Shown: positions 4,315-37,072, numbered from the stretch's first letter. The stretch: DNA of 64,000 bases from an uncultured delta proteobacterium (GCA_963771465.1 CAVYTU010000017.1:1100641-1164640), one strand, 5' to 3'. A program made the numbers and translations. The notes: generated from the sequence alone by a model not told the origin.

Positions 4315-5144
4315 GGGCGACCCTCACCCAGCAAAAACTCCGTTAGCACACGGTTAAACTCTTCGGTCTCCTCGATCTGGGGTTCGTGCGCCGAGCGTTT
4401 GAAACGATAAACTCTTGAGCCTGAGACGATCTTTTGAAAGTTTACGTCCCAATCGCTCTGATTGAGCAGATCGTGATCACACGACATGATCAGCAGCGGC
4501 GTAGTCAATTGCGCTAGCTGCTTGACGAACTCTTCGGTTGTCGAGCGCACTTGGTGCGCCGGACTGCGCAAACGCGCGGCGGACAACGTTTCCCATGCGC
4601 CGGGGATGATCGAGCTGGCGTAGCGCTCGCGAATATTTTCCTCGCTCTGCCACTTGGCGTCGTGGTAGAGCAGCGCGACGATCTTTTTCATATTTTCCGG
4701 CGACGGGGTGTAGTTTTCCAAGTCGGCTTGGGAGTTGGTCTTGAACACGCTGGCGTTGCCGCAGATGGTCACCATTTTTTGAATCTGAAACGGCGCTGGA
4801 GTGCGCACTGAAGCGCGCAGAACCAAGCCGCCGCCGGCGGAATTGCCGACGAAGAATGCTCTGCCGATGCCCAATATTTCCAGAAAGCGCTGCACATGCT
4901 TGATGCGCAAGCCCGCCGGGTCGGTGAAGCTGTAGAGTTTATCGGTTTGACCCCAGCCCAAAATATCCGGCGCCACGATATGGAAACGTTTAGCCAGCGC
5001 GTCGATATTGTAGCGCCAGGTGATTTCCGCTGACGCGCCGTACTCGCCGCCATGGAGCAGAACCAGATCGGGCCCGCTGCCGGCTTCGAGGAAATGGGTC
5101 TTGACGTCGCCGACCAGAATCGTGCGGTGTTGGTAACTTGCCAT
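4311..5144 (-). CDS. Alpha/beta-fold hydrolase (meta-cleavage hydrolase-like)
   Basis: LLHGG oxyanion motif, GNSAGG nucleophile elbow, C-terminal SAHEPQIE histidine. Confidence 0.85.
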   Translation of the reverse strand: MASYQHRTILVGDVKTHFLEAGSGPDLVLLHGGEYGASAEITWRYNIDALAKRFHIVAPDILGWGQTDKLYSFTDPAGLRIKHVQRFLEILGIGRAFFVGNSAGGGLVLRASVRTPAPFQIQKMVTICGNASVFKTNSQADLENYTPSPENMKKIVALLYHDAKWQSEENIRERYASSIIPGAWETLSAARLRSPAHQVRSTTEEFVKQLAQLTTPLLIMSCDHDLLNQSDWDVNFQKIVSGSRVYRFKRSAHEPQIEETEEFNRVLTEFLLGEGRP

Positions 5145-5156
5145 GCTTTGGAACGT

Positions 5157-5927
5157 CTAAAGAAAAGCCACGCCGCCGTCGACGGCGACGGTTTGACCGG
5201 TCATAAAATCGCTCAGCGGCGAGGCGAGAAAGAGCATGGTGCCGACCAAGTCCTTGGGCAACTGCACGCGCTTCAAGGCGCGATCGGCCAAGCGCGCGCC
5301 GCGCATTTTGAGCACTTCTTCGGTGGGATTTTCCTCCGAAAGCGTCGAGCCCGGCGCGATCGCGTTGACGTTGATGTTGTCGTCGCCGACTTCGCGGGCC
5401 AACGTGCGCGTGAAGCCGATGACGCCGGCTTTCGATGTCACGTAGTGAATTCGCCCGGCGCTGCCGTTGAGCGCGGTGCCAGAAGAGATATTGATGATCT
5501 TGCCTGATTTTTGTTGGCGCATGGTCGGCAAGACGGCGCGGGTGCAGAAAAATAAACCTTTGAGATTGACCGTCATCATCCGGTCCCATTCCGCTGGATC
5601 GATGGTATCGATGCCGCCGCGATTCATCGGAATCGTCGAAAAAATCGCCGCGTTATTGACCAATACATCGATGCGACCGAATTTATCGAGCGTTAGCTTT
5701 GCCATGTCTTTGGTCGACTGCTCGTTGGCGACGTCGACTTTGGCGCCAAGCGCTTTGCCGTCAAACTGTTTGACGGCTTCGCCGGCGACTTTGTCCGCCG
5801 CCGGCGCGTCGATGTCAGCGACGACGACTTTAGCGCCGGCTTCGGCGAATCCGTGGCAATAGGCGCGGCCAATGCCATGACCGCCGCCGGTGACGATGAC
5901 AACCTTGTCTTTGAGTCCTTGGATCAT
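5157..5927 (-). CDS. Short-chain dehydrogenase/reductase
   Basis: TGGGHGIG, NNAA, YVTSK. Confidence 0.9.
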   Translation of the reverse strand: MIQGLKDKVVIVTGGGHGIGRAYCHGFAEAGAKVVVADIDAPAADKVAGEAVKQFDGKALGAKVDVANEQSTKDMAKLTLDKFGRIDVLVNNAAIFSTIPMNRGGIDTIDPAEWDRMMTVNLKGLFFCTRAVLPTMRQQKSGKIINISSGTALNGSAGRIHYVTSKAGVIGFTRTLAREVGDDNINVNAIAPGSTLSEENPTEEVLKMRGARLADRALKRVQLPKDLVGTMLFLASPLSDFMTGQTVAVDGGVAFL

Positions 5928-6004
5928 TTGTTTGCTCCCATGAATTGATTTGGCGTCAAAATAGCCTTAGAACTTTTTGAGTGTCAAGCTGACAATTTGC
6001 TTCT

Positions 6005-6787
6005 ATGCAAAAAAGTAGTGATATTGCGCTGAAGGTAATGGATTCAATGAGATGTCTCGATAAGTTTTATTTTCAACCTTTCATCGTCTTGCTGTGCGGA
6101 CTGGTTCTTTGGGTCGACCTGGGGCCGGCTGCCGAGGTCGCACCGAACCCGGACACGTTGCCGATGTACGGCCAGCCGAAGATTCCCCGCTCGGAAGCGC
6201 AGAAGTCCGCCGATGAGGGGTTCGTTCGCGACAACACGCTGAGATTTAGAAACCGTGCGGCGGGAAGTGTCGCGTTTGCGGCGCAAGGTTGGACGGCGCT
6301 GCGCGCCAAGCAGGTCGATGTCGCCATGCAACGATTTAATCAGGCCTGGTTGATGAATCCGAAATACTACGGCGCGTTCTGGGGTTTCGGCGCGGCCCTG
6401 AGCGAGCGCGGCCGCTTGATCGAAGCGATTGAGCAGCTTGAAACCGCACGCACTCTGATCGACGAGCCCGCCCAGCGCCCTGCATTGCTCGCCGACTTGG
6501 GCGCACTGCATTCCGAGTACGCTGTACGCTTGCCCGCCGATAAGCAGCTCGACCGCGCCCAGCATTTCGTCTTGGCCAATTCTCGCTTCACCGAAAGCGT
6601 CGATAACGACCCCAATTTTGCGTCGGCTTGGCGCGAGTGGGCGATGTCGCTCTATGATCAGGAGCGCTATTCCGAAGCTTGGGTAAAGGCGAAGCGGGTG
6701 CAGGAACTGGGAGGCGAGCCGTTGCCAGCGGAATTTCTAAAAAAACTTTCGGCGAAGCTGCCGGAACCCAAGTCACCTGACAAATAG
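6005..6787 (+). CDS. Tetratricopeptide-repeat protein, probably exported
   Basis: AMQRFNQAWLMNP and further TPR-like helices; hydrophobic segment near N-terminus; start uncertain. Confidence 0.7.
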   Translation: MQKSSDIALKVMDSMRCLDKFYFQPFIVLLCGLVLWVDLGPAAEVAPNPDTLPMYGQPKIPRSEAQKSADEGFVRDNTLRFRNRAAGSVAFAAQGWTALRAKQVDVAMQRFNQAWLMNPKYYGAFWGFGAALSERGRLIEAIEQLETARTLIDEPAQRPALLADLGALHSEYAVRLPADKQLDRAQHFVLANSRFTESVDNDPNFASAWREWAMSLYDQERYSEAWVKAKRVQELGGEPLPAEFLKKLSAKLPEPKSPDK

Positions 6788-6816
6788 ATTCACAAATATT
6801 ATCCCGCGACTGGCGA

Positions 6817-7668
6817 TTGTCTCGCTGCGCCCGGACAGGCCGCAGGCAAGAGCACGGTCGGCGACGTCTAATTCTGATATTGTTCGCTTGCGCGCTCGTG
6901 TTGCCGCTTCAAGCGCTGGCACAAAAGAGCAACGATGCTAATAGATTTTTATCAATCTGGGCGGGCAGCTTGCCGCTGATACTTTCGGCGCCTCACGGTG
7001 GGCGCGAAGCGATTCCTGGCGTGCCGCTACGCCGCGGCGTCGGAGTGGCGCAGTTCAGCACCGGCCGTGACAACAATACCGACGAACTCGCGGCGGCGAT
7101 AGCGCTCAAAATTGGCGCTAGTCTCGGCGTAAAACCGTTCGTCGTGATCGCTCGCTTCGATCGCAAGTTTCTTGACGTGAACCGACCGTCGACCGGAGCC
7201 TATGAGTCGGCGGCGGCACAGCCGTTCTACGACGCCTATCATCGTGCACTTGAAGAGTCGGCTGAGAAAGTTCGCGCGCAATGGGGCGGTGGTCTGCTGC
7301 TTGATCTGCACGGTCAGGGTGCCGAGATCGACACGATCTACCGCGGCACCGACAACGGTGAAACCGTTGCCGCGTTAGTGCAGCGCTACGGCAAGGAAGC
7401 CATAAACGGCGCCCATAGTATTTTTGGACAGCTTGCTGCCAAGGGTTACAAAGTTCTGCCCGATCCGAGCGGGATCGAGCGCGAGCGCCGCTACATCGGC
7501 GGCTACACAGCGCGGACCTACGGCAGTCACCGCGGTACGAAGATCGATGCCATTCAAATTGAGCTCGGCACCAACCTGCGCGCCAAGGCCAATCTGCAAC
7601 GCACGGCGCAGGATTTGGCAGCGGCCATCGAGGTGTTTGCCAAAGCCTTCCTGCCCGTCGACAAATAG
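6817..7668 (+). CDS. N-formylglutamate amidohydrolase family protein (exported)
   Basis: SAPHGG, DVNR, LLDLHGQ, AIQIE motifs; signal peptide. Confidence 0.75.
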   Translation: MSRCARTGRRQEHGRRRLILILFACALVLPLQALAQKSNDANRFLSIWAGSLPLILSAPHGGREAIPGVPLRRGVGVAQFSTGRDNNTDELAAAIALKIGASLGVKPFVVIARFDRKFLDVNRPSTGAYESAAAQPFYDAYHRALEESAEKVRAQWGGGLLLDLHGQGAEIDTIYRGTDNGETVAALVQRYGKEAINGAHSIFGQLAAKGYKVLPDPSGIERERRYIGGYTARTYGSHRGTKIDAIQIELGTNLRAKANLQRTAQDLAAAIEVFAKAFLPVDK

Positions 7669-22049: not shown

Positions 22050-22131
22050 GAGGTAGAGATAACAGAATCATCTTGCTTTTGCATGCCGGCGACCCTGTGC
22101 TAGTATCTCATGCAGTGAATAGGAGTCAGCT

Positions 22132-22458
22132 ATGAGCAACTTCAAAAAACTGTCCGATGCCATGCAGTTTTCACCGGAAAAGATGAAAAAAAATGGCGTC
22201 TTCGAAACGGACCATTTTTTTTGCGATACGTACTGTTTCGAACCTGGACAGAGCCAGAGCCCGCATACCCATGCCCACGAAGATAAAATTTACTATGTGC
22301 TCGAAGGGCGAGGGTCGTTTACCATTGGCGATGAAGAACGCGAGTTGGGCGCCGGCGAGATCGCGCTGGCGCCGGCTGGGCAGAATCACGGCGTTGCCAA
22401 CCGCAGCCAACAGAGACTCGTGACCCTGGTATTCGTCACGCCGAAGCCGCACCATTAA
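22132..22458 (+). CDS. Cupin domain protein
   Basis: HTHAHED..YYVLEG and PAGQNHG cupin motifs. Confidence 0.85.
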   Translation: MSNFKKLSDAMQFSPEKMKKNGVFETDHFFCDTYCFEPGQSQSPHTHAHEDKIYYVLEGRGSFTIGDEERELGAGEIALAPAGQNHGVANRSQQRLVTLVFVTPKPHH

Positions 22459-29096: not shown

Positions 29097-30185
29097 TCAA
29101 GAGGACGGATGTGGCGGTGAGGCAAAGGGCAGGGCGGTCACGGTGGCCTGGATCGCGCCATTCTCACGAGGGATGGAAAGAGCGGTCCCAGGCGACCAGA
29201 AGTTTCTGTGAATGTAACCGAGTGCGATGGCTCGGTTGAGTGCAATCGATGCGACGGAGCTGGTGATCTTGCCGACTTCGTTACCGGCGGTGACAATCGC
29301 ATCGCCGGCGTTGGCTGGGGTATTGCCGTCGAGCAGTAGTCCGCAGAGTTTCCGGTTTACATGACCACGCGAGCGAATGCGTTCGACGACTTCTTGGCCG
29401 AGATAGCAACCTTTGGTGTAGCTATAGGAATTATCCAGGCCCACTTCGAGGAGCAAATTCTCTTCATTGAAATCGACGCCGTAACGCGGCATGCCGGCTT
29501 CGACGCGCAAGATATTCTGCGCCCGCGCGCCGACCCATGAGGCGCCGAGCTGTTCCAGTCGTTGAGCGAAGATTTGCAGGCAAGAATTTTGCACGATTAA
29601 ATCAAAGCCATTATGACCCGTGCGATCGGCGCGCACGACGCACACCGGCGCGCCGTCGAACTGAACTATCGTATGCCGATCGGGCTGCGCGGGCAGTTCG
29701 GTATTGGCAAAGAGTTTATCGAGGATGCTTTGCGCGCGCGGGCCTTGCAGCGACAGCATCGTCCATTGGTCGTTAGGATCGTTGATCTCGACTTCGTCGG
29801 CGACCAGGTAGCGATTGAGATGGGCGATAATTTTTTCTTTAAGCGGCTCCCAGAAATCCAAATAGATCGAGTTCATGGCGCAGAGCACGCGCACGTCAGC
29901 TATCACTCTGCCCTGCTGGGTGAGTATCGTAGCCTGCTGGCCGTCGAACATTTTCAACAAGCGGACATCGTTGGATAACATGCCTTGCAAGAAGGAAACG
30001 CGATCCGGTCCGGCGAATTGAAGCAGGGCGCGATGGGAGAGATCGAAAAGGCCGGCAGCGGTGCGGACCGATTGGTACTCGGCGGCAAAGTCGCCAAAGT
30101 GATCCGGCAAGCGCCAACCGTCTTGTTCGGCGAATACGGCGCCGTTTCGCTGGTGCAATTCCGTCAGTAGCGATTGCTTTGCCAT
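29097..30185 (-). CDS. ygfZ: Folate-binding YgfZ/GcvT-family protein
   Basis: KGCYLGQEVVERI signature. Confidence 0.82.
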   Translation of the reverse strand: MAKQSLLTELHQRNGAVFAEQDGWRLPDHFGDFAAEYQSVRTAAGLFDLSHRALLQFAGPDRVSFLQGMLSNDVRLLKMFDGQQATILTQQGRVIADVRVLCAMNSIYLDFWEPLKEKIIAHLNRYLVADEVEINDPNDQWTMLSLQGPRAQSILDKLFANTELPAQPDRHTIVQFDGAPVCVVRADRTGHNGFDLIVQNSCLQIFAQRLEQLGASWVGARAQNILRVEAGMPRYGVDFNEENLLLEVGLDNSYSYTKGCYLGQEVVERIRSRGHVNRKLCGLLLDGNTPANAGDAIVTAGNEVGKITSSVASIALNRAIALGYIHRNFWSPGTALSIPRENGAIQATVTALPFASPPHPSS

Positions 30186-30307
30186 CAGTCCGGAAATATA
30201 GCGTCAAGCGTCGATGATGACAATCGCTCGTCGCGGTTAACCGATGATTGATTGATAGTTTCTCGGTGTGATAGAGAGTAATCATCAACTAAATACGGAG
30301 GTAGCAA

Positions 30308-30775
30308 ATGGCAGGACTCGAAGGGCAGAAGGCACCGGCGTTCACATTGGCGGGAAGCGACGGTAAACAACACTCGCTCGCTGAATACGCCGGAAAAAAC
30401 GTAATTCTGTGGTTTTATCCGAAAGACGACACCCCTGGCTGAACCAAGGAAGCGTGCGGGTTCCGCGACGCTATCGAAACCGTGACGAAAGCCAATACCA
30501 TCGTCGTAGGTGTCAGCCCCGACGGCATTGATTCACACAACAGCTTTATCAGTAAATTCAATTTACCGTTCGTATTACTGTCCGATCCACAGAAGGATGC
30601 CATGAAAGCCTACGGGGCTTGGGGACCGCGCAAAAATGCCCAAGGCGAAGTGTCCGAGGGCACGATTCGCTCGACGGCTTTGATCGGACCCGACGGCACA
30701 ATCAAGAAACATTGGATTCCAGTCACTGACGCCGGAGCGCATCCGGCGGAAGTATTGGCTGTTCTCAACAACTAA
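30308..30775 (+). CDS. bcp: Selenocysteine-containing peroxiredoxin (BCP/PrxQ), copy 1
   Basis: GGAGG RBS, ATG 30308, MAGLEGQKAPAF...FYPKDDTPG-TGA(30440-42)-TKEACGFRD. In frame with ORF 30482-30775; 155 aa in total. Confidence 0.9.
30451..30472 (+). promoter_or_regulatory. Bacterial SECIS-like hairpin
   Basis: AGCGT-GCGG-GTT-CCGC-G-ACGCT starts 8 nt after the UGA; the G-led apical loop is ~17 nt downstream. Confidence 0.75.
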
Positions 30776-30861
30776 GTCTGCTTAAACTCGATGTGGGGAG
30801 TAAGCCGCGTTCGTCTGGCGGCTTACTCCCTTATCGGATTCCTGGTTGCTCGCCAGATTCA

Positions 30862-31773
30862 ATGGCCAAGCTCAAAGCCGATATCGATCTTCACAAGTTA
30901 GAAATTTTTTATTGGGTCGCAGAGCATAAGAGTTTTTCGCAGGCCGCAGAACTGCTGTCGCTGCGCCAGCCGACGATTAGCGCGCATGTACAGGAATTGG
31001 AAACGGCGGTCGGCGGCAAGCTGCTCTATCGCATACCCGGAAAAGTCAGCCTCACGCCGCTAGGTCTCATGCTCGTCGAGCGGGCTAAGCATCTGCTCGC
31101 GTTCAAGCGCGAGACGGTGGCCGCCGTCGAGCAGTTTCACGGTACTCTGAGCGGTGAGCTTTGGGTCGGCGGCAGCAGCATCCCAGGAGAATACCTGTTG
31201 CCGCAAAAGTTGGGTGAGTTCGCAAAGAAATATCCTCACGTCAAACCGATCCTGCGTATCGGCGATTCCGCCGGTATCGTCGCCGATCTGTTAGACGGTA
31301 AAGTCGAGATCGGTTTTGTCGGTTTCAAAAGTGACGACGTGCGGCTTACTTTCGCAAAGATTTGGGACGACGAGATGGTTATTGCCGTGCCGAAAGGTCA
31401 TCCTTGGACCAAGCGCAAAGCCGTGAATGTGGCCGATCTGCGAACCGAGAAATTCATTTCGCGCGAGCATGGTTCCGGGACTCTCGATTCGATTCACCAC
31501 CTGCTCGCCAAACGACGGCAGGCGGCCGATGACTTACTCAACATCTCCATGGAACTCGGCAGCACTGAGGCAGTCAAGGAAGCGTTAATGGCGGGATTCG
31601 GCTTTTCGATCCTGTCGCGCATCTCGATCCGCCATGAGTTGTCCGAAGGAACGATCGTCGAGGTGGCGCTCCGGGGACGGCAGATGAAACGAGATTTTTA
31701 CGAAGTTTTCCATAGCCGTCGGCCCTTACACCCCATCGCTCAGGTGTTTCTTGAGTTTCTAAAGCTTCAATAA
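30862..31773 (+). CDS. LysR-family regulator, CysL/selenium-metabolism-associated type
   Basis: HTH SFSQAAELLSLRQPTISAHV; GGSSIPGEYLLP, REHGSGT and ELGSTEAVK motifs typical of CysL-like LTTRs. Confidence 0.85.
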   Translation: MAKLKADIDLHKLEIFYWVAEHKSFSQAAELLSLRQPTISAHVQELETAVGGKLLYRIPGKVSLTPLGLMLVERAKHLLAFKRETVAAVEQFHGTLSGELWVGGSSIPGEYLLPQKLGEFAKKYPHVKPILRIGDSAGIVADLLDGKVEIGFVGFKSDDVRLTFAKIWDDEMVIAVPKGHPWTKRKAVNVADLRTEKFISREHGSGTLDSIHHLLAKRRQAADDLLNISMELGSTEAVKEALMAGFGFSILSRISIRHELSEGTIVEVALRGRQMKRDFYEVFHSRRPLHPIAQVFLEFLKLQ

Positions 31774-31812
31774 TCCTTCGATTTTTGCCAAAAAATACCT
31801 TTGAGCTCTTAC

Positions 31813-31849
31813 ATAGCTGATACCTATTTAGTATATAGGTAGAATAGAT
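31813..31849 (+). promoter_or_regulatory. Tandem LysR-type boxes upstream of the sulfoxide synthase gene
   Basis: ATAG-N7-CTAT (31813-31827), 7-bp gap, ATAG-N7-AGAT (31835-31849): T-N11-A architecture. Confidence 0.65.
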
Positions 31850-31867
31850 CAGCGGTTGGGAGCGATT

Positions 31868-33226
31868 ATGGCACTACCGTTAAGACGAAGCGGCGAGAGC
31901 GGAATCGATCTTCTGCGCGATAGGTTTCGCGCCGCATGGTCGCGCTCGGATGAGATCTTTGCCATTGTGCCGAGCGGTCAGTTGTTGGCGCAGCCGATTG
32001 TCTGGCGCCATCCGTTTATTTTCTACATCGGTCATCTGCCGGCCTTCTCGTGGAACCAAATCTGCGGCGAAGTTCTCCGCTGGCCGTCATTCAATTCTTA
32101 TTTCGACGATCTGTTTTGCCGCGGCATCGATCCCGACGTGGACACCGGCGAATGTCATTGGCACCCGGAGGTTCCGGATCGCTGGCCAAGTCTTGCGGAA
32201 ACTATCTATTATCGAGACCGAGTACGGGATGCTATCCTCGATTCGGTCGAAGCGCTCGGCTATTGCCGCTCCGATGATATCATGGGCCAAGGCGGCCGTG
32301 TTTTACAGATGGTGCTGGAGCACGAATATATGCATCAGGAGACTTTGCTCTACATGATGCAGCGACTGCCCATCGCGCAAAAAATCCGGCCGCGCGCTCC
32401 TGTCCGATACTTATTTCAACCCTGGCGCGCTTCCCAATCGGTGCGCATCCCAAAAGGTCAAGCGCGTTTGGGCGCCAGTTTCGATGAATTGGGCTTCGGC
32501 TGGGACAACGAATTCGACCAGATCGTCGTCGACGTGCCGGCGTTCACCATCGACTCTTTGCCCGTTACCAATGGACAGTTCAGCGAATTCGTCACATCGG
32601 GGGCTTATGATGATCCGCGCCATTGGCGGCCGGAGGATTGGCGCTGGAAGAATTTGGAAAATAAGCGCCACCCTAGCTGCTGGGTCGAGCAAGCGGACGG
32701 GTGGTTTTATCGCTCGATGTTCGATGTCTTGCCGCTCGGTCAAGTTGCCAGCTGGCCGGTCTATGTAAGCTTGGCCGAAGCTCGCGCTTACGCCGCCTGG
32801 CGCGGCAAACGATTACCAAGCGAAGCCGAGTATCAGCGCGCGGCATTTTATGGTCCAGACGAGCGGGAGACGCCGTATCCTTGGGGTGACGATGCGCCTG
32901 GGCGCCAGCATGGCAACTTCGAATTTACCTCGTGGTCGCCGACTCCGGTCGGATCGAGTCCAGCGGGGGCGAGCCGTTGGGGTGTTCATGAACTGGTCGG
33001 CAATGGTTGGGAATTGACCGATAGCCCCTTTGCGCCACTGCCGGGTTTCACGCCTTACATGGCCGGTTATCCGGACTACTCAAAAGATTTTTTCGACGGC
33101 AAGCATTTCGTCGTTAAAGGCGCGTCCTGGGCGACCGACGCCGGCCTCTTGCGGCCGAGCTTTCGCAATTGGTATCAAGCGCACTATCCCTATGTGTTTG
33201 CCAAGTTTCGATGCGTATGGAATTAG
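31868..33226 (+). CDS. Non-heme iron sulfoxide synthase (EgtB/Egt1-like; DinB_2 + FGE-sulfatase domains)
   Basis: RHPFIFYIGHLPAF, RGIDPDVD..CHWH, EHEYMHQETL (His triad), RLPSEAE, GNGWE, YPDYSKDFFDGKH, SFRNWYQ. Confidence 0.85.
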   Translation: MALPLRRSGESGIDLLRDRFRAAWSRSDEIFAIVPSGQLLAQPIVWRHPFIFYIGHLPAFSWNQICGEVLRWPSFNSYFDDLFCRGIDPDVDTGECHWHPEVPDRWPSLAETIYYRDRVRDAILDSVEALGYCRSDDIMGQGGRVLQMVLEHEYMHQETLLYMMQRLPIAQKIRPRAPVRYLFQPWRASQSVRIPKGQARLGASFDELGFGWDNEFDQIVVDVPAFTIDSLPVTNGQFSEFVTSGAYDDPRHWRPEDWRWKNLENKRHPSCWVEQADGWFYRSMFDVLPLGQVASWPVYVSLAEARAYAAWRGKRLPSEAEYQRAAFYGPDERETPYPWGDDAPGRQHGNFEFTSWSPTPVGSSPAGASRWGVHELVGNGWELTDSPFAPLPGFTPYMAGYPDYSKDFFDGKHFVVKGASWATDAGLLRPSFRNWYQAHYPYVFAKFRCVWN

Positions 33227-33253
33227 AACAATTTCGTAAGATGGAGGCGCGCC

Positions 33254-33535
33254 ATGAAAGCGACCTGGGAAAATCAGATTCTCGCCGAGTCGAACCAGAC
33301 GGTCGTCGTCGAGGGTAATCATTATTTTCCGCCGGAATCGATCCGCAAAGAATGCTTCAAAGCGAGTGAAACTCACAGCACCTGTCCTTGGAAAGGAGTT
33401 GCCAACTACTATCATGTTCAGGTCAGCGACAAGGTCAATCAAGACGCCGCGTGGTATTATCCAGAACCCAAAGAGGCGGCAAAGTCGATCAAGAATCATG
33501 TCGCCTTCTGGCGCGGTGTAAAGGTGAGCGAGTAA
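33254..33535 (+). CDS. DUF427 domain protein
   Basis: VEGNHYFP, TCPWKGVANYY, AAWYYPEPK. Confidence 0.88.
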   Translation: MKATWENQILAESNQTVVVEGNHYFPPESIRKECFKASETHSTCPWKGVANYYHVQVSDKVNQDAAWYYPEPKEAAKSIKNHVAFWRGVKVSE

Positions 33536-33548
33536 GAGCGCATCGCGA

Positions 33549-34355
33549 ATGTCGGTGCAAACCTTGCGAATCGCTTCCTGCATGGCCGAGAATACCGATG
33601 AGCTGTGCCGCTCAATCGTCAATATCATTGAAAGAGAGGTCGGCATCCCGACGGAATACGTCACCGAGGTGCCGTGGCAAGAACGCGAACGGTTATTCGA
33701 CCTGGGCGAGATTCAAATTCTTTGGCTGTGCGGCTTGCCCTATGTGAATAAAGCCGATCTCGCTGACAGTCGCATGGAATTGCTTGCCGTGCCGGTACCA
33801 GCCGGCGCACGCTATCAGGCGCGGCCGGTGTATTTTTCCGATGTCGTGGTCCGCCGGGAGAGTGTCTTCGAGTCGTTCGTCGATCTGCGCGGCGCGTCAT
33901 GGGCTTACAACGAGCCGCGCTCGCATTCCGGTTTCAACGTAGTACGCGCATACCTGGCCGAAATCGGTGAGTTAGAGGGCTTCTTCGGCAGCGTCATTGA
34001 ATCGGGTGCGCATACAAATTCGATTGAATTAATCTTATCCGGCGTCATCGATGGCGCGGCGATCGATAGCACTGTCTTGGAATGGTTGTCGTCCCAGCGC
34101 GCCGATTTGGACGACCAACTGCGCGTTATCGATACCATCGGCCCGAGCCCGATCCCGCCCTGGGTCATCTCCACGAGATTGCCTGGGAACTTGCGCTCTC
34201 AAGTCCGCCAGCTGTTGCTCAATCTACAATTGAACCCACTCGGGCGGGGCGCCCTCGGACGCGCACAGCTTGCGAGATTTAGCCTTGCCCATGACCGGGA
34301 CTACGACCCGATTCGTCGCATGGCGCGCAAGGCAGAGGCGGTTTTGCTGGCCTAA
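33549..34355 (+). CDS. PhnD-like substrate-binding-fold protein lacking a signal peptide
   Basis: WLCGLPY, YFSDVVV, DLRG..WAYNEPRSHSG, SGAH, AAIDS; no hydrophobic leader. Confidence 0.75.
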   Translation: MSVQTLRIASCMAENTDELCRSIVNIIEREVGIPTEYVTEVPWQERERLFDLGEIQILWLCGLPYVNKADLADSRMELLAVPVPAGARYQARPVYFSDVVVRRESVFESFVDLRGASWAYNEPRSHSGFNVVRAYLAEIGELEGFFGSVIESGAHTNSIELILSGVIDGAAIDSTVLEWLSSQRADLDDQLRVIDTIGPSPIPPWVISTRLPGNLRSQVRQLLLNLQLNPLGRGALGRAQLARFSLAHDRDYDPIRRMARKAEAVLLA

Positions 34356-34422
34356 TTTCATATGATAAGAACCTCATCATGGGCGCGATCGCGCCGCTAA
34401 CACGACAAGGAGAAGAGGGAAA

Positions 34423-34890
34423 ATGGCGAGCTTAGAGGGCAAAAAAGCGCCGGCATTTAATTTGGAAGGTAGCGACGGCAAAAAACATTCGTTGGACGAC
34501 TACAAAGGCAAAACCGTCGTCATGTTTTTCTATCCCAAGGACAGCACCCCTGGCTGAACCAAGGAAGCTTGCGGGTTTCGCGAGCGCAATAATCAGCTGA
34601 AAAAACTAAACGCGGTGGTGCTCGGCGTGAGCAAAGATAACATTCCGTCACACAACAAATTCGCTGAGAAGTACGATTTGCCGTACGTCCTGCTGTCGGA
34701 CCCGAATGCCGAAGTCATGAAGAAATATTCAGCCTTCGGCAAAAAAATGATGTACGGCAAGGAAGTGCAGGGGACGATTCGCTCGACGGTGGTGATCGGC
34801 CCGAAAGGCGACGTGATCAAGCAATGGAATCCCGTTAAAAAGGCCGAAACGCATCCCGAAGAGGTGCTCGCCTTTATCAAGAGCAGTTAA
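34423..34890 (+). CDS. bcp: Selenocysteine-containing peroxiredoxin (BCP/PrxQ), copy 2
   Basis: ATG 34423 MASLEGKKAPAF...FYPKDSTPG-TGA(34555-57)-TKEACGFRE. In frame with ORF 34615-34890; 155 aa. Confidence 0.9.
34567..34585 (+). promoter_or_regulatory. Bacterial SECIS-like hairpin
   Basis: GCTTGCG-GGTTT-CGCGAGC: 7-bp stem with one G-U pair, at the same offset from UGA as in copy 1. Confidence 0.75.
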
Positions 34891-34932
34891 GCCTGCCGGT
34901 TATTTGATTCCTGAATAATTGCACAAAGTGAA

Positions 34933-34960
34933 TTGACATAGGTTTTCTATCAGTTATAAA
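34933..34960 (+). promoter_or_regulatory. Sigma70-type promoter with a palindrome in the spacer
   Basis: TTGACA (34933-38)-N16-TATAAA (34955-60); ATAG-N5-CTAT at 34938-34950. Confidence 0.6.
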
Positions 34961-35002
34961 CACTCCTATCGAAATGGCCTATCCACTGGACAGGGGGGAG
35001 CT

Positions 35003-36100
35003 ATGAATAGACGGGATTTTCTTAAACAAGGTCTGACGGTTTCAGCTGGGGTCGCGCTCGGCGGCTTGCCCAAGTTTACCGGCGTGGGTCATGCTGATGA
35101 TCCGACAAAATGGCGCACCTTCGAAGTGATCACGACGATCGAGGTCAAAGATCCCGTGGGTGGTGTGCGCACATGGATTCCGGTGCCATTGACGAACAAT
35201 ACCGATTATTTCAAACGGGAACCGGATAGCTGGACGGGAAATTTCAAAGCTGCCCGTGCCGTGCAGTACGACAAATATGGAACGGGAATGGTTTTCGCTG
35301 AATGGGCGCCGGGCGAGAAAGCGCCGCTGCTCGAGGTGAAGAGCCGCTTCATGACCCGCGACCGGGCGATCGATGTGAACGCGAAACCCACCGGCGCCGC
35401 GAAAGAAAACCCGGCCGTGCTCAATTACTTCCGTCAACCTTCAAAGCTTATCCGCACGGACGGTATCGTCGCCACAACATCGAAAGGCATTGTTATGGGC
35501 TTGAAGAGTGACGCCGACAAGGGCAAGGCGATCTACGAATGGATCGTCGATAACACTTTTCGCGACGCCAAGGTTAAGGGCTGCGGTATTGGCGATATCT
35601 CCACCATGCTCGAAAGCGGCTATTTGGGCGGCAAATGCGCTGATTTGAATGCGCTCTATGTCGGCCTTGCTCGCGCCGCTGGCTTGCCCGCGCGCGATGT
35701 TTACGGCGTGCGTGTCGCGGCCTCCTCGGAATTTAAAAGTCTGGGCCGAGCCGACGATATCACCGGAGCGCAACATTGCCGCGCCGAAGTTTATCTCAAC
35801 GGCTACGGCTGGACGCCGGTGGATCCGGCTGACGTGCGCAAAGTGGTGCTCGAAGAAAATTTGCCGGGCGAACAATTGCCGCTGACCGACCCGAAAGTGA
35901 AACGGGCGCGGGAAAAACTATTCGGCGCCTGGGAAATGAACTGGTTGCCGTATAATTACGGCCACGACATCAAGCTGCCCAACTCCAAGCTGCAGGAAGT
36001 CGCTTTCTTCATGTACCCACAGTTGGAAACCGCCAATGGTCGGAGAGATAGCCTTGACCCGGCGAATTTCAAATACACGATCAAGTCGAAAGAAGTTTAA
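35003..36100 (+). CDS. Tat-exported transglutaminase-like (Cys protease fold) protein
   Basis: MNRRDFLK twin-arginine leader; GGKCADLN, QHCRAE and PVDP supply a Cys-His-Asp triad. Confidence 0.85.
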   Translation: MNRRDFLKQGLTVSAGVALGGLPKFTGVGHADDPTKWRTFEVITTIEVKDPVGGVRTWIPVPLTNNTDYFKREPDSWTGNFKAARAVQYDKYGTGMVFAEWAPGEKAPLLEVKSRFMTRDRAIDVNAKPTGAAKENPAVLNYFRQPSKLIRTDGIVATTSKGIVMGLKSDADKGKAIYEWIVDNTFRDAKVKGCGIGDISTMLESGYLGGKCADLNALYVGLARAAGLPARDVYGVRVAASSEFKSLGRADDITGAQHCRAEVYLNGYGWTPVDPADVRKVVLEENLPGEQLPLTDPKVKRAREKLFGAWEMNWLPYNYGHDIKLPNSKLQEVAFFMYPQLETANGRRDSLDPANFKYTIKSKEV

Positions 36101-36125
36101 GCTCGAACTCTGGACGAAAACTTAC

Positions 36126-36161
36126 ACGAGGCCCCCACAATCTGGGGGCCTCGTCATTTTT
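36126..36161 (+). terminator. Rho-independent terminator
   Basis: ACGAGGCCCCCA-caatc-TGGGGGCCTCGT followed by CATTTTT; between convergent genes. Confidence 0.75.
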
Positions 36162-36214
36162 GGCAGCGAATGCTGAAAGGGTGGCACTCCATGCTGTGCA
36201 CATCACAACCGTTG

Positions 36215-37072
36215 CTATCGGCTCAGTGCTTCTTCGATCGCACGCGCAACATAGACGTGGGTGAGATGGGCGCGATATTCAGACGAGCCGTTGATGTCTT
36301 CGATGACTTCCACGTTGCGCGTCGACTCGGCGGCGGCTTGTTCGATTAGTGCCGTATCCAGTTTCTTTCCCGTTAGCAATTGTTCAGTTCTCTCTGGCCG
36401 ATAGGCTTTGTCCGTCACGCCGGTTATGCCGATCGCCGCGCGGCTGCAAACTCCGCCATTATCAACAGCTAAACGCACTGCCACGCCGGTCACGGCAAAT
36501 CCCGAAGAGCGTGGCGCGGCTTTTTGATAAGCCGTCTTGTCGCTCCCGGTGACCGGCACTCTGATAGCGGTCACGATTTCATCCGGTTCTAACACGCTCA
36601 TCAATAGGCCGAGAAAAAATTCATCGCACTTGACCCAGCGTTCGCCGCTGGGACCGTAGACTTTGATCTCGGCATCGAGAGCCATCATCGTTGCCGGCCA
36701 ATCGCCGGCGGGATCGGCGTGAGCGACACTGCCACCGAGGGTGCCACGGTTGCGTACTTGCACGTCGGCGATGGTGGTCGCGGTTTGCGGTAGCAGAGGG
36801 CATTTGGCTTTGAGCAGATCGGAATATTCGATTTGTTCGTGGGTGACCAGGGCGCCGATGACGAGATCGTTGCCGTCCTGCTTGATCGTATCGAGGCCGG
36901 GAATACGGCCGATGTCGACAACATAGGCGGGCTTTGACAAGCGCATCTTCATCAATGGCAGCAAGCTTTGCCCGCCGGAAAGTATTTTTACGTCGTCTTT
37001 GTGTTCCGAGAGAAATCTAACCGCGTCGCTTAAAGAACGGGGCGCGTAATAGTCGAAAGCACCGGGAATCAT
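36215..37072 (-). CDS. Xanthine dehydrogenase family FAD-binding subunit (CoxM-like)
   Basis: SGGQSLLP, VRNRGTLGGS, ADPAGD. Confidence 0.9.
   Translation of the reverse strand: MIPGAFDYYAPRSLSDAVRFLSEHKDDVKILSGGQSLLPLMKMRLSKPAYVVDIGRIPGLDTIKQDGNDLVIGALVTHEQIEYSDLLKAKCPLLPQTATTIADVQVRNRGTLGGSVAHADPAGDWPATMMALDAEIKVYGPSGERWVKCDEFFLGLLMSVLEPDEIVTAIRVPVTGSDKTAYQKAAPRSSGFAVTGVAVRLAVDNGGVCSRAAIGITGVTDKAYRPERTEQLLTGKKLDTALIEQAAAESTRNVEVIEDINGSSEYRAHLTHVYVARAIEEALSR

Follow-up and report, generated by a model that had tools for sequence, protein, structure and literature searches.

A putative ergothioneine-type antioxidant block flanked by selenocysteine peroxiredoxin genes in an uncultured deltaproteobacterium

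Overview of the block

The window analysed here, a 64,000-nucleotide stretch of DNA from an uncultured delta proteobacterium (GCA_963771465.1 CAVYTU010000017.1:1100641-1164640), carries at positions 30308-36100 a block of seven co-directional genes centred on a non-heme-iron sulfoxide synthase. We consider it reasonably probable that these genes form a chromosomal module for antioxidant defence in an uncultured soil lineage rich in selenoproteins, assembled from known parts in an undescribed order. Its synthase would make a sulfur-histidine antioxidant, ergothioneine, beside two selenoperoxidases, probably under the control of a regulator from a selenium-associated family. What is unusual is the arrangement, in which the synthase gene lies apart from egtD, follows the sole LysR_Se-type regulator of the genome and a short DNA box that is unique in the genome, and is flanked by genes for selenocysteine (Sec) peroxiredoxins. 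The parts are of known kinds and do not make up a new selenium pathway, and new C-Se chemistry is not supported.

All seven genes proposed earlier from the window sequence alone (hereafter the original prediction) are present at 30308-36100 on the + strand, as are the hairpins and the box at 31812-31838 described below. In order, they encode a first peroxiredoxin (BCP1), the LysR regulator, the synthase, a DUF427 protein, a PhnD-like protein, a second peroxiredoxin (BCP2) and a transglutaminase-like protein. The gaps between the synthase and DUF427 genes (27 nt) and between the DUF427 and PhnD-like genes (13 nt) are short, and a terminator scan found no + strand site within the block, the sole + strand site being the bidirectional intrinsic terminator that ends it (36126-36154; hairpin z-score -5.41). 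The GC content of the block (0.52-0.58) resembles that of its flanks, and thus the block is not a compositional island.

Active site and relatives of the sulfoxide synthase

The synthase gene (31868-33226) encodes a protein of 452 amino acids with DinB_2 and FGE-sulfatase domains and no extra domain, which is the architecture of non-heme-iron sulfoxide and selenoxide synthases. Its open reading frame (ORF) opens with TTG at 31856, and the database form of the protein begins at ATG 31868. The protein scores below the curated cut-offs for ovoA_Nterm (TIGR04344; 246 versus 400), SenA (NF041186; 227.2 versus 420) and EgtB (226 versus 360). Its best solved relative is EgtB-IV (8VIH; 197.7 bits), and OvsA and SenA match far less well. 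The Egt1/EgtB-like assignment made in the original prediction stands.

A preprint on ovoselenol (10.1101/2024.04.10.588772) gives, in the portion used here, a 17-position composite motif for each synthase subfamily. Fourteen of the 17 positions could be mapped onto the window synthase via alignments, and residue roles were taken from two texts of the Seyedsayamdost group and from our own reading of the alignments. At these positions the protein reads RHYHDHMHYYNWYY, which comprises a three-histidine iron site, a catalytic tyrosine, R/Y/D residues on the cysteine side as in OvoA and EgtB-IV, and N-W on the hercynine side. The SenA encoded elsewhere in the same genome reads VNEH-HMHYYNFYR, equal to the published SenA motif, and its N-E-H..H-R element (xNEH--HR) is absent from the window synthase. 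The window synthase also departs from OvoA and OvsA, having N-W-Y where OvoA has Y-A-F and OvsA has Q-A-Y; it carries the N-W of hercynine users rather than the alanine of histidine users.

Using the synthase as query, 48 loci were retrieved, of which 34 encode a synthase at least 58% identical to that of the window and 14 a synthase at 39-49% identity. An EgtD over its cut-off directly adjoins the synthase in eight of 10 scanned loci (nine of the 14 distant loci plus L036, at 59% identity), the exceptions being L057 and L036. A profile-free search of 1.84 billion representatives yielded 640 proteins at E <= 1e-30, and 41 representatives that were near-full-length or long were scanned for domains. 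Sixteen of these 41 carry an N- or C-terminal EgtD fusion (three such domains are over the EgtD cut-off), and one, P0140, is fused to a pyridoxal phosphate (PLP) aminotransferase-like domain. None of the 41 reaches the OvoA or SenA cut-off, and P0260 alone reaches that of EgtB. In a tree of 83 rows, rooted on the genome's own SenA and P0260, the window clade (six rows, support 100) lies within a 35-row group (support 95) that contains most of the fusions, and EgtD-fused or EgtD-adjacent members are found in all three main groups. The exact 14-position string of the window synthase recurs in the EgtD-fused proteins P0133, P0189, P0239 and P0246, as well as in the long relatives P0235 and P0259, which fell outside the domain scan. 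The EgtD-adjacent synthases of L041, L042, L050 and L051 differ from this string solely by F for the last Y.

Because its active-site string is identical to that of EgtD-fused relatives, the window synthase is predicted to join cysteine to hercynine. Judged from the sequence, it would most likely use Fe(II) and O2 to attach cysteine to C2 of hercynine, and the resulting hercynylcysteine sulfoxide would proceed to ergothioneine. The enzyme shares with cyanobacterial EgtB-IV (8VIH) and the Egt1 fusions the fold, the three-histidine site, the tyrosine, the R/Y/D and N-W residues, and relatives that are fused or adjacent to EgtD. It differs from them in standing alone and away from egtD, in its N-W-Y ending, and in forming an operon with DUF427 and PhnD-like genes behind LysR_Se; its identity to 8VIH, estimated by eye from the alignment, is about 35% or less.

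The original prediction had named a Se- or S-histidine antioxidant made by a non-SenA enzyme. In the selenium version of this scheme the synthase would form a C-Se bond, with either free selenocysteine or the selenosugar product of SenB as donor. A LysR_Se regulator and two Sec peroxiredoxins as neighbours would suit such a role, as would a putative selenate importer that follows BCP2 in one related locus (see below). The genome's SenB could supply the selenosugar, and OvsA is presented in part of the ovoselenol preprint (10.1101/2024.04.10.588772) as evidence that new selenoxide synthases exist. However, the active site holds R/Y/D rather than the N-E-H..H-R of SenA and OvsA, and its signature is the cysteine/hercynine type of the EgtD-fused and EgtD-adjacent relatives. 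Furthermore, no senB or senC was found in the close loci around the clade, and the genome already has a true SenA (482 bits), whereas the window synthase reaches 227 of the required 420. This part of the original prediction is not borne out, and we judge a selenium-inserting synthase to be very improbable.

A substrate other than hercynine must also be weighed, for example histidine converted to 2-thiohistidine, with the DUF427 and AioX-like (that is, PhnD-like) proteins tailoring or carrying a new thio-imidazole. Enzymes that make 2-thiohistidine from histidine have recently been found in the OvoA branch, as reported in a section of PMC13674229, and the lack of an adjacent egtD, the two conserved accessory genes downstream and a last motif aromatic of Y rather than F would fit this proposal. 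Set against it is the histidine-using 2-position enzyme AshA, which has H-F-Y and F where the window synthase has N-W-Y and Y. N-W with Y at +3 is a hercynine-type pattern, the same string occurs in proteins that are fused to EgtD, and the block encodes no ATP-grasp or further tailoring enzyme. We regard a substrate of this kind as improbable and favour cysteine and hercynine.

Selenoneine and ergothioneine genes elsewhere in the genome

That egtD, senB and selD are missing, as noted in the original prediction, is true of the window region but not of the genome, which has senB, senA and egtD on contig C7 and selABD on contig C14. The senB and senA genes are adjacent (G000:C7:70672-73059, locus L059), with SenB at 401.7 bits against a cut-off of 300 and SenA at 482.2 against 420. 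The single egtD of the genome lies about 5 kb from them (C7:78119-79147; 298.2 bits versus 290.9). L059 (C7:70672-79147) is a canonical selenoneine locus, in which senB-senA are followed by genes for a GlcNAcase-like protein (194.8 bits on a beta-N-acetylglucosaminidase model, which is short of the model's threshold), for an alpha/beta hydrolase and for a secreted protein with an FGE-sulfatase domain. EgtD is present in 23 of 24 same-genus genomes, mostly on the contig of the SenA-type match; our same-genus tallies include the unpublished genome G005, without which this count is 22 of 23.

The block resembles a senA-senB(-senC) cluster in its predicted reliance on hercynine from EgtD and in its link to selenium, and such a cluster is present in the same genome on C7. 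The differences are that the window synthase has no SenA signature and misses the SenA cut-off, and that neither a glycosyltransferase nor a SelD paralogue is encoded in the block. Hercynine for the window synthase would come from the one EgtD of the genome, encoded beside senA and senB on the other contig. A single hercynine pool would then serve SenA and SenB for selenoneine and the window synthase for ergothioneine.

A selenium-associated LysR regulator and its candidate operator

The regulator gene (30862-31773; HTH_1 and LysR_substrate domains) encodes a protein that scores 264.4 bits on NF040786, the model of a selenium-metabolism-associated LysR family with a cut-off of 250. It is the sole protein of the genome over this cut-off, the next best scoring 155.5 bits. 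The gene lies between two selenoprotein genes and not beside selABD on C14. Its start is most likely ATG 30862, because a strong hairpin at 30788-30836 falls within the longer, GTG-started LysR ORF. The protein contains zero cysteines, which makes an OxyR-like thiol peroxide sensor unlikely and suggests that a small ligand is sensed rather than oxidation.

The LysR_Se family has been described by Lin et al. (PMC5322559), and the relevant parts of that paper report that the archaeal orthologue HrsM regulates Sec/Cys isogenes, with selenophosphate as the proposed effector. The window regulator passes the family model, belongs to a Sec-decoding host and adjoins selenoprotein genes with Sec in some orthologues and Cys in others, all of which parallel the known system. 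It differs from that system in not lying by selA, selB or selD, and in having as its candidate target an ergothioneine-type operon, which we did not find described.

Alignment of the 140 nt upstream of the synthase in 25 regions (24 loci and the window) revealed a 27-nt candidate operator/promoter box, CATAG-N7-CTATTTAGTATATAG at 31812-31838, which is kept in 17 of the 25 regions while the surrounding intergenic sequence drifts. Scored across the 6.9-Mb genome, a profile of this box gives 41.9 here and no more than 17.9 anywhere else. The core ATAG-N7-CTAT, which we take to be a T-N11-A inverted repeat of the type bound by LysR-type transcriptional regulators (LTTRs), occurs twice in the window against an expectation of 0.18, the second exact match being at 22119-22133. 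The box always comes after LysR and before whichever gene of the synthase unit follows, and in L019 it lies downstream of LysR and upstream of a BCP1(Cys)-synthase unit.

From this conserved and unique box, the best evidence available, we infer that LysR controls the synthase unit. LysR most likely binds ATAG-N7-CTAT just downstream of its own gene, and from there it would control the genes for the synthase, DUF427 and the AioX-like protein, and probably also those for BCP2 and the transglutaminase-like protein. A stretch that resembles the synthase box, with a spacer of 5 nt, occurs upstream of the transglutaminase-like gene (CATAGGTTTTCTAT at 34937-34950) and is followed by a TATAA-like stretch.

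A more elaborate proposal, in our view unlikely, is that the block acts as a selenium-status switch. One EgtD would feed both SenA/SenB, to give selenoneine, and the Egt1-type synthase, to give ergothioneine, and LysR_Se acting at the box would set the sulfur branch and the peroxidases according to selenium supply, in parallel with HrsM of Methanococcus. The DUF427 and PhnD-like proteins would then handle the sulfoxide or a betaine, in place of a PLP-dependent C-S lyase. The idea that a selenium-family regulator governs the sulfur side of a pathway with common hercynine can be tested and is, to our knowledge, undescribed.

Two peroxiredoxin genes with selenocysteine codons

BCP1 (30308-30775; Pfam AhpC-TSA, E 2.8e-36) and BCP2 (34423-34890; PF00578, E 5.5e-39) are AhpC/TSA proteins of the PrxQ/BCP subgroup that are 57% identical to each other. 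Each gene has one in-frame TGA, at 30440-30442 (codon 45) in BCP1 and at 34555-34557 in BCP2, within the context PKD(D/S)TPG-U-TKEAC (PKDDTPG-U-TKEAC in BCP1). The encoded residue is at the peroxidatic position of a PxxxTxxU motif, with the resolving Cys at +5. A review (PMC13188914) gives, in the passage concerned, PxxxTxxU as a motif of selenocysteine peroxiredoxins.

Downstream of the codons are hairpins of the selenocysteine insertion sequence (SECIS) type, at 30451-30472 in BCP1 (GCGUGCG-GGUUC-CGCGACGC) and at 34567-34585 in BCP2. Single-sequence folds of the 61 nt after each TGA have z-scores near 0 and are therefore not evidence in themselves; the hairpins rest on a comparison of 54 BCP homologues from the window and its 48 related loci. 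Among these, the 33 homologues with TGA keep a hairpin that begins about 11 nt past the codon and has a loop of the GGGUU type (mean -12.8 kcal/mol), and in the 21 homologues with TGC or TGT the hairpin is lost (mean -7.0 kcal/mol). An Rfam scan of 29500-36500 at E values up to 1, SECIS models included, gave no match.

The genome also encodes the machinery needed for Sec decoding, the search for which the original prediction had proposed as a check. It comprises a selA-selB-selD operon (G000:C14:197319-201637), in which selD itself has an in-frame TGA, and a tRNA-Sec on a separate contig (G000:C13:400988-401082). Because the hairpin tracks TGA codons and because selA, selB, selD and tRNA-Sec are present, both TGAs are, as far as can be read from DNA, real Sec codons and not breaks, as originally claimed. 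The orthologues of BCP1 are 23 with TGA and six with Cys, and those of BCP2 are likewise mixed (eight with TGA, 16 with Cys).

When U is read as C, BCP1 and BCP2 miss the cut-offs of the NCBIfam equivalogs for PrxQ or BCP, NF053650 (155 and 174.5 bits, respectively, against 260) and NF006960 (111.6 and 127.1 against 140). Like PrxU of Eubacterium acidaminophilum and other peroxiredoxin selenoproteins, they have the AhpC/TSA fold, the PxxxTxxU motif and Sec as the peroxidatic residue. They differ from PrxU in belonging to the PrxQ/BCP subgroup, with the resolving Cys at +5, and in falling below both the PrxU and PrxQ equivalog cut-offs. As atypical two-cysteine peroxidases of the PrxQ type, whose reaction steps are known from the family, they would attack peroxides with Sec in place of the peroxidatic Cys, form a selenenyl-sulfide with the Cys at +5, and then be reduced, presumably by thioredoxin.

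Five related loci (L019:1439-1708, L025:4231-4602, L026:4248-4619, L030:4698-5069 and L032:3051-3422) carry a third, distinct Prx-like gene upstream of the GcvT-like one; its TGA stands in the context FYPLDFTGG-U.

Conservation of the arrangement and the case for coupling

The 34 close loci are all from metagenome bins, labelled as Deltaproteobacteria, Binatia, Syntrophobacteraceae and a few others. A BCP and/or LysR gene stands beside the synthase in 33 of them, L036 being the exception, and the conservation of the neighbourhood that the original prediction had put forward as a check is thus present among close relatives. The commonest order is GcvT-like (- strand), BCP1, LysR, synthase, DUF427, PhnD-like, BCP2, transglutaminase and CoxM-like (- strand). 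LysR precedes a Cys-type BCP1 in six loci (L019, L025, L026, L027, L029 and L032). DUF427 is absent from five loci that extend beyond the synthase, the PhnD-like gene is found in 15 loci, and a transglutaminase-like gene follows BCP2 in 19 related loci. Among the 14 distant loci, none has a BCP or LysR neighbour.

In one locus (L047:10443-13841), the transglutaminase position after BCP2 holds a putative selenate ABC importer. Its TIGR04553 component scores 340.7 bits against a cut-off of 250, the PhnC-like component is just under its cut-off (263.9 versus 266.1), and two PhnE-like components are over theirs. No protein over the TIGR04553 cut-off was found in the window's own genome. Weak tblastn matches occur at the corresponding position in L028, L037 and L038.

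Within the genus, an orthologue-level match to the synthase was found in 18 of 24 genomes (17 of 23 without G005), and in G009 a contig end interrupts the locus. The synthase, LysR and GcvT-like flank were not found in G004, G007, G016 and G024 with the queries used, and when a clean block deletion was sought in these four genomes no indel boundary was readable. Synthase matches are split over two or three frames in G008, G012, G015, G018, G019 and G020. An in-frame TGA in the synthase orthologue of L017 (L017:8001-9356) was rejected as a Sec codon because it replaces a conserved Trp codon, and is read as an error or a pseudogene. The split synthases and the L017 TGA reflect either faulty assembly of long-read bins or genes in decay.

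Four metatranscriptome libraries from soil, drawn from four studies, contain contigs that match the window at 90-100% identity, cover parts of all seven genes and bridge the synthase/DUF427, DUF427/PhnD-like and BCP2/transglutaminase junctions.

One alternative to a coupled module is that these genes are neighbours by descent, with LysR_Se acting on the peroxiredoxin genes or on selenium genes far from the block, and with the synthase operon being an independent ergothioneine locus placed there by chance. The GcvT-like and CoxM-like flanks are conserved alongside the block, and the close loci all fall within one genus-level lineage of GTDB. With flanks conserved among kin in this way, synteny alone does not prove coupling and may reflect descent. 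The loci that lack the DUF427 or PhnD-like gene and the absence of BCP or LysR neighbours from the distant clade point in the same direction, as does the frequency of Sec peroxiredoxins in the genome. The last of these can be quantified: of 24 genomic AhpC/TSA matches, nine contain a single in-frame TGA, and contig C17 accounts for six of the nine. Sec peroxiredoxin-like proteins seem very plentiful in this genome, and bracketing by two of them is therefore less striking here than it would be elsewhere.

Several further findings weigh, together with the conserved flanks and the many Sec peroxiredoxins, against an ergothioneine-producing module under LysR_Se. The box is co-directional with LysR and downstream of it, whereas that of a classical LTTR lies in a divergent promoter, and an exact-match search for it was negative in several loci ordered LysR-BCP1-synthase. 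The RNA-library contigs prove neither transcription nor single transcripts. The synthase motif ends in NWY, whereas the published EgtB-IV motif RxYH--DxHxHYxNWFx has NWF, and the rule given with that motif in the preprint would class the enzyme as 'other'. Finally, the block lacks a gene for a C-S lyase, and a genome search with the PLP domain of P0140 gave one weak match (24.6% identity over 114 residues), for which reason we name no lyase candidate.

Independent neighbours are nevertheless harder to reconcile with a box that is always found between LysR and the synthase unit and is conserved amid diverging intergenic sequence. Rearranged loci still hold LysR, BCP1 and synthase together, the intergenic gaps are short without an internal terminator, and RNA-library contigs bridge several gene junctions. 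On this evidence we consider mere co-inheritance to be the less convincing account, and rather unlikely, and we retain the reading of the block as an antioxidant module. The original prediction of a module that couples selenoperoxidases to a Se- or S-histidine antioxidant survives in its conserved unit, its selenium link, its probable sulfur product and, as a proposal, its coupling; the selenium product is not upheld.

DUF427 and PhnD-like accessory proteins

Between the synthase and BCP2 genes lie those for two conserved accessories, the DUF427 protein and a cytoplasmic AioX/PhnD-like protein. The DUF427 gene (33254-33535; PF04248, E 1.3e-33, 115.1 bits against a gathering score of 22.1) encodes a protein with a solved relative, 3DJM, and with a Cys44 (in TCxWKG) that is invariant in 25 aligned sequences. 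DUF427 is described, in the part of PMC4287342 that treats it, as a beta-tent fold without a zinc site. The gene adjoins the synthase in 21 close loci and an EgtB-EgtD pair in three Aquabacterium/Leptothrix loci, and Table 1 of PMC13674229 gives DUF427 as a neighbour of 5.7% of such synthase genes.

The PhnD-like gene (33549-34355; PF12974, E 8.6e-39) has seven open codons upstream, which leaves no space for a leader and indicates that the protein is cytoplasmic. All 14 full-length orthologues are leaderless as well, the 15th (L025) being truncated and outside this count, and the leaderless state claimed in the original prediction is thereby confirmed. The closest solved relatives are the arsenic-oxyanion sensors AioX and ArrX (6ESK and 6X6B, about 90 bits), and a protein-atlas search returned the Pfam family alone. 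The AioX pocket consists of Tyr88, Cys106, Tyr131, Ser161, Ser163, His192 and Asp210 (PMC5908839). Mapped by hand from a HMMER alignment, six of these seven residues are kept, including the equivalent of the arsenite-binding Cys106, and Trp stands in place of Tyr88. None of the seven positions varies among the 14 full-length orthologues, and the truncated L025 departs at two. The likeness to AioX and ArrX lies in their being the best solved relatives and in the six pocket residues kept; the differences are the Tyr88 change and the lack of a signal peptide, the sensors being periplasmic. No sensor kinase or response regulator of the AioX type is among the seven block genes.

With the PhnD-like protein as query, 56 loci were retrieved and 14 of them sampled by hand. 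In L101 (4977-7813) the gene for a homologue is immediately upstream of those for an EgtB-II-type synthase and a methyltransferase, and in L089 (3629-8963) it lies within 3 kb of senB/senA. In two Shewanella genomes (L113 and L114, about 5000-7360) it lies beside BCCT betaine transporters, in L088 (5001-7372) by an MttB-family methyltransferase, and in L081 (2454-4127) by a RimK-type ATP-grasp gene. These homologues are leaderless and come from other phyla, and the remaining sampled loci have unrelated neighbours. Such genomic contexts are leads toward a betaine or thiohistidine ligand, or an oxyanion, and do not define a function.

Other features of the block

A 14-bp hairpin directly 3' of BCP1 (30788-30836) is predicted at -39.7 kcal/mol (z-score -6.07, with none of 200 shuffles as stable). 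Its probable role is to set BCP1 apart from LysR as a terminator or an attenuator, although it may be a repeat element. The last gene (35003-36100) encodes a transglutaminase-like protein with a clear Transglut_core match (E 2.4e-19) and Cys-His-Asp core residues that can be seen in the sequence. The Tat (twin-arginine translocation) assignment in the original prediction is less secure than the enzyme family, for the signal is a weak Pfam match (E 0.0098) with a visible RR motif. The tie of this gene to the rest of the block is uncertain.

Novelty and significance

A full-text literature search combining ergothioneine and DUF427 returned PMC13674229 alone, and one combining ergothioneine, peroxiredoxin, selenocysteine and EgtB returned nothing. 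Table 1 of PMC13674229 lists no peroxiredoxin or LysR among synthase neighbours down to 0.3%. The arrangement was thus not found in print within the texts searched; the supplements of PMC13674229 and of the ovoselenol preprint, which were outside the search, may list the clade as an uncharacterised motif.

One antioxidant exists in a sulfur form, ergothioneine, and a selenium form, selenoneine, and no account of how a cell able to make both chooses between them was found in the literature searched. The locus offers a testable handle on that choice, since it places a sulfur-branch synthase directly behind a selenium-family regulator and a genome-unique short candidate operator. It also joins two recurrent synthase neighbours, DUF427 and the leaderless PhnD/AioX-like protein, in one tight operon with the synthase. 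The operon is therefore well suited to finding the roles of these accessories, notably whether the DUF427 and PhnD-like proteins replace the missing C-S lyase step. Should none of these proposals stand, the analysis would still provide a clean annotation of a defence block with Sec peroxiredoxins and an ergothioneine-type synthase, from a soil lineage that is abundant and uncultured.

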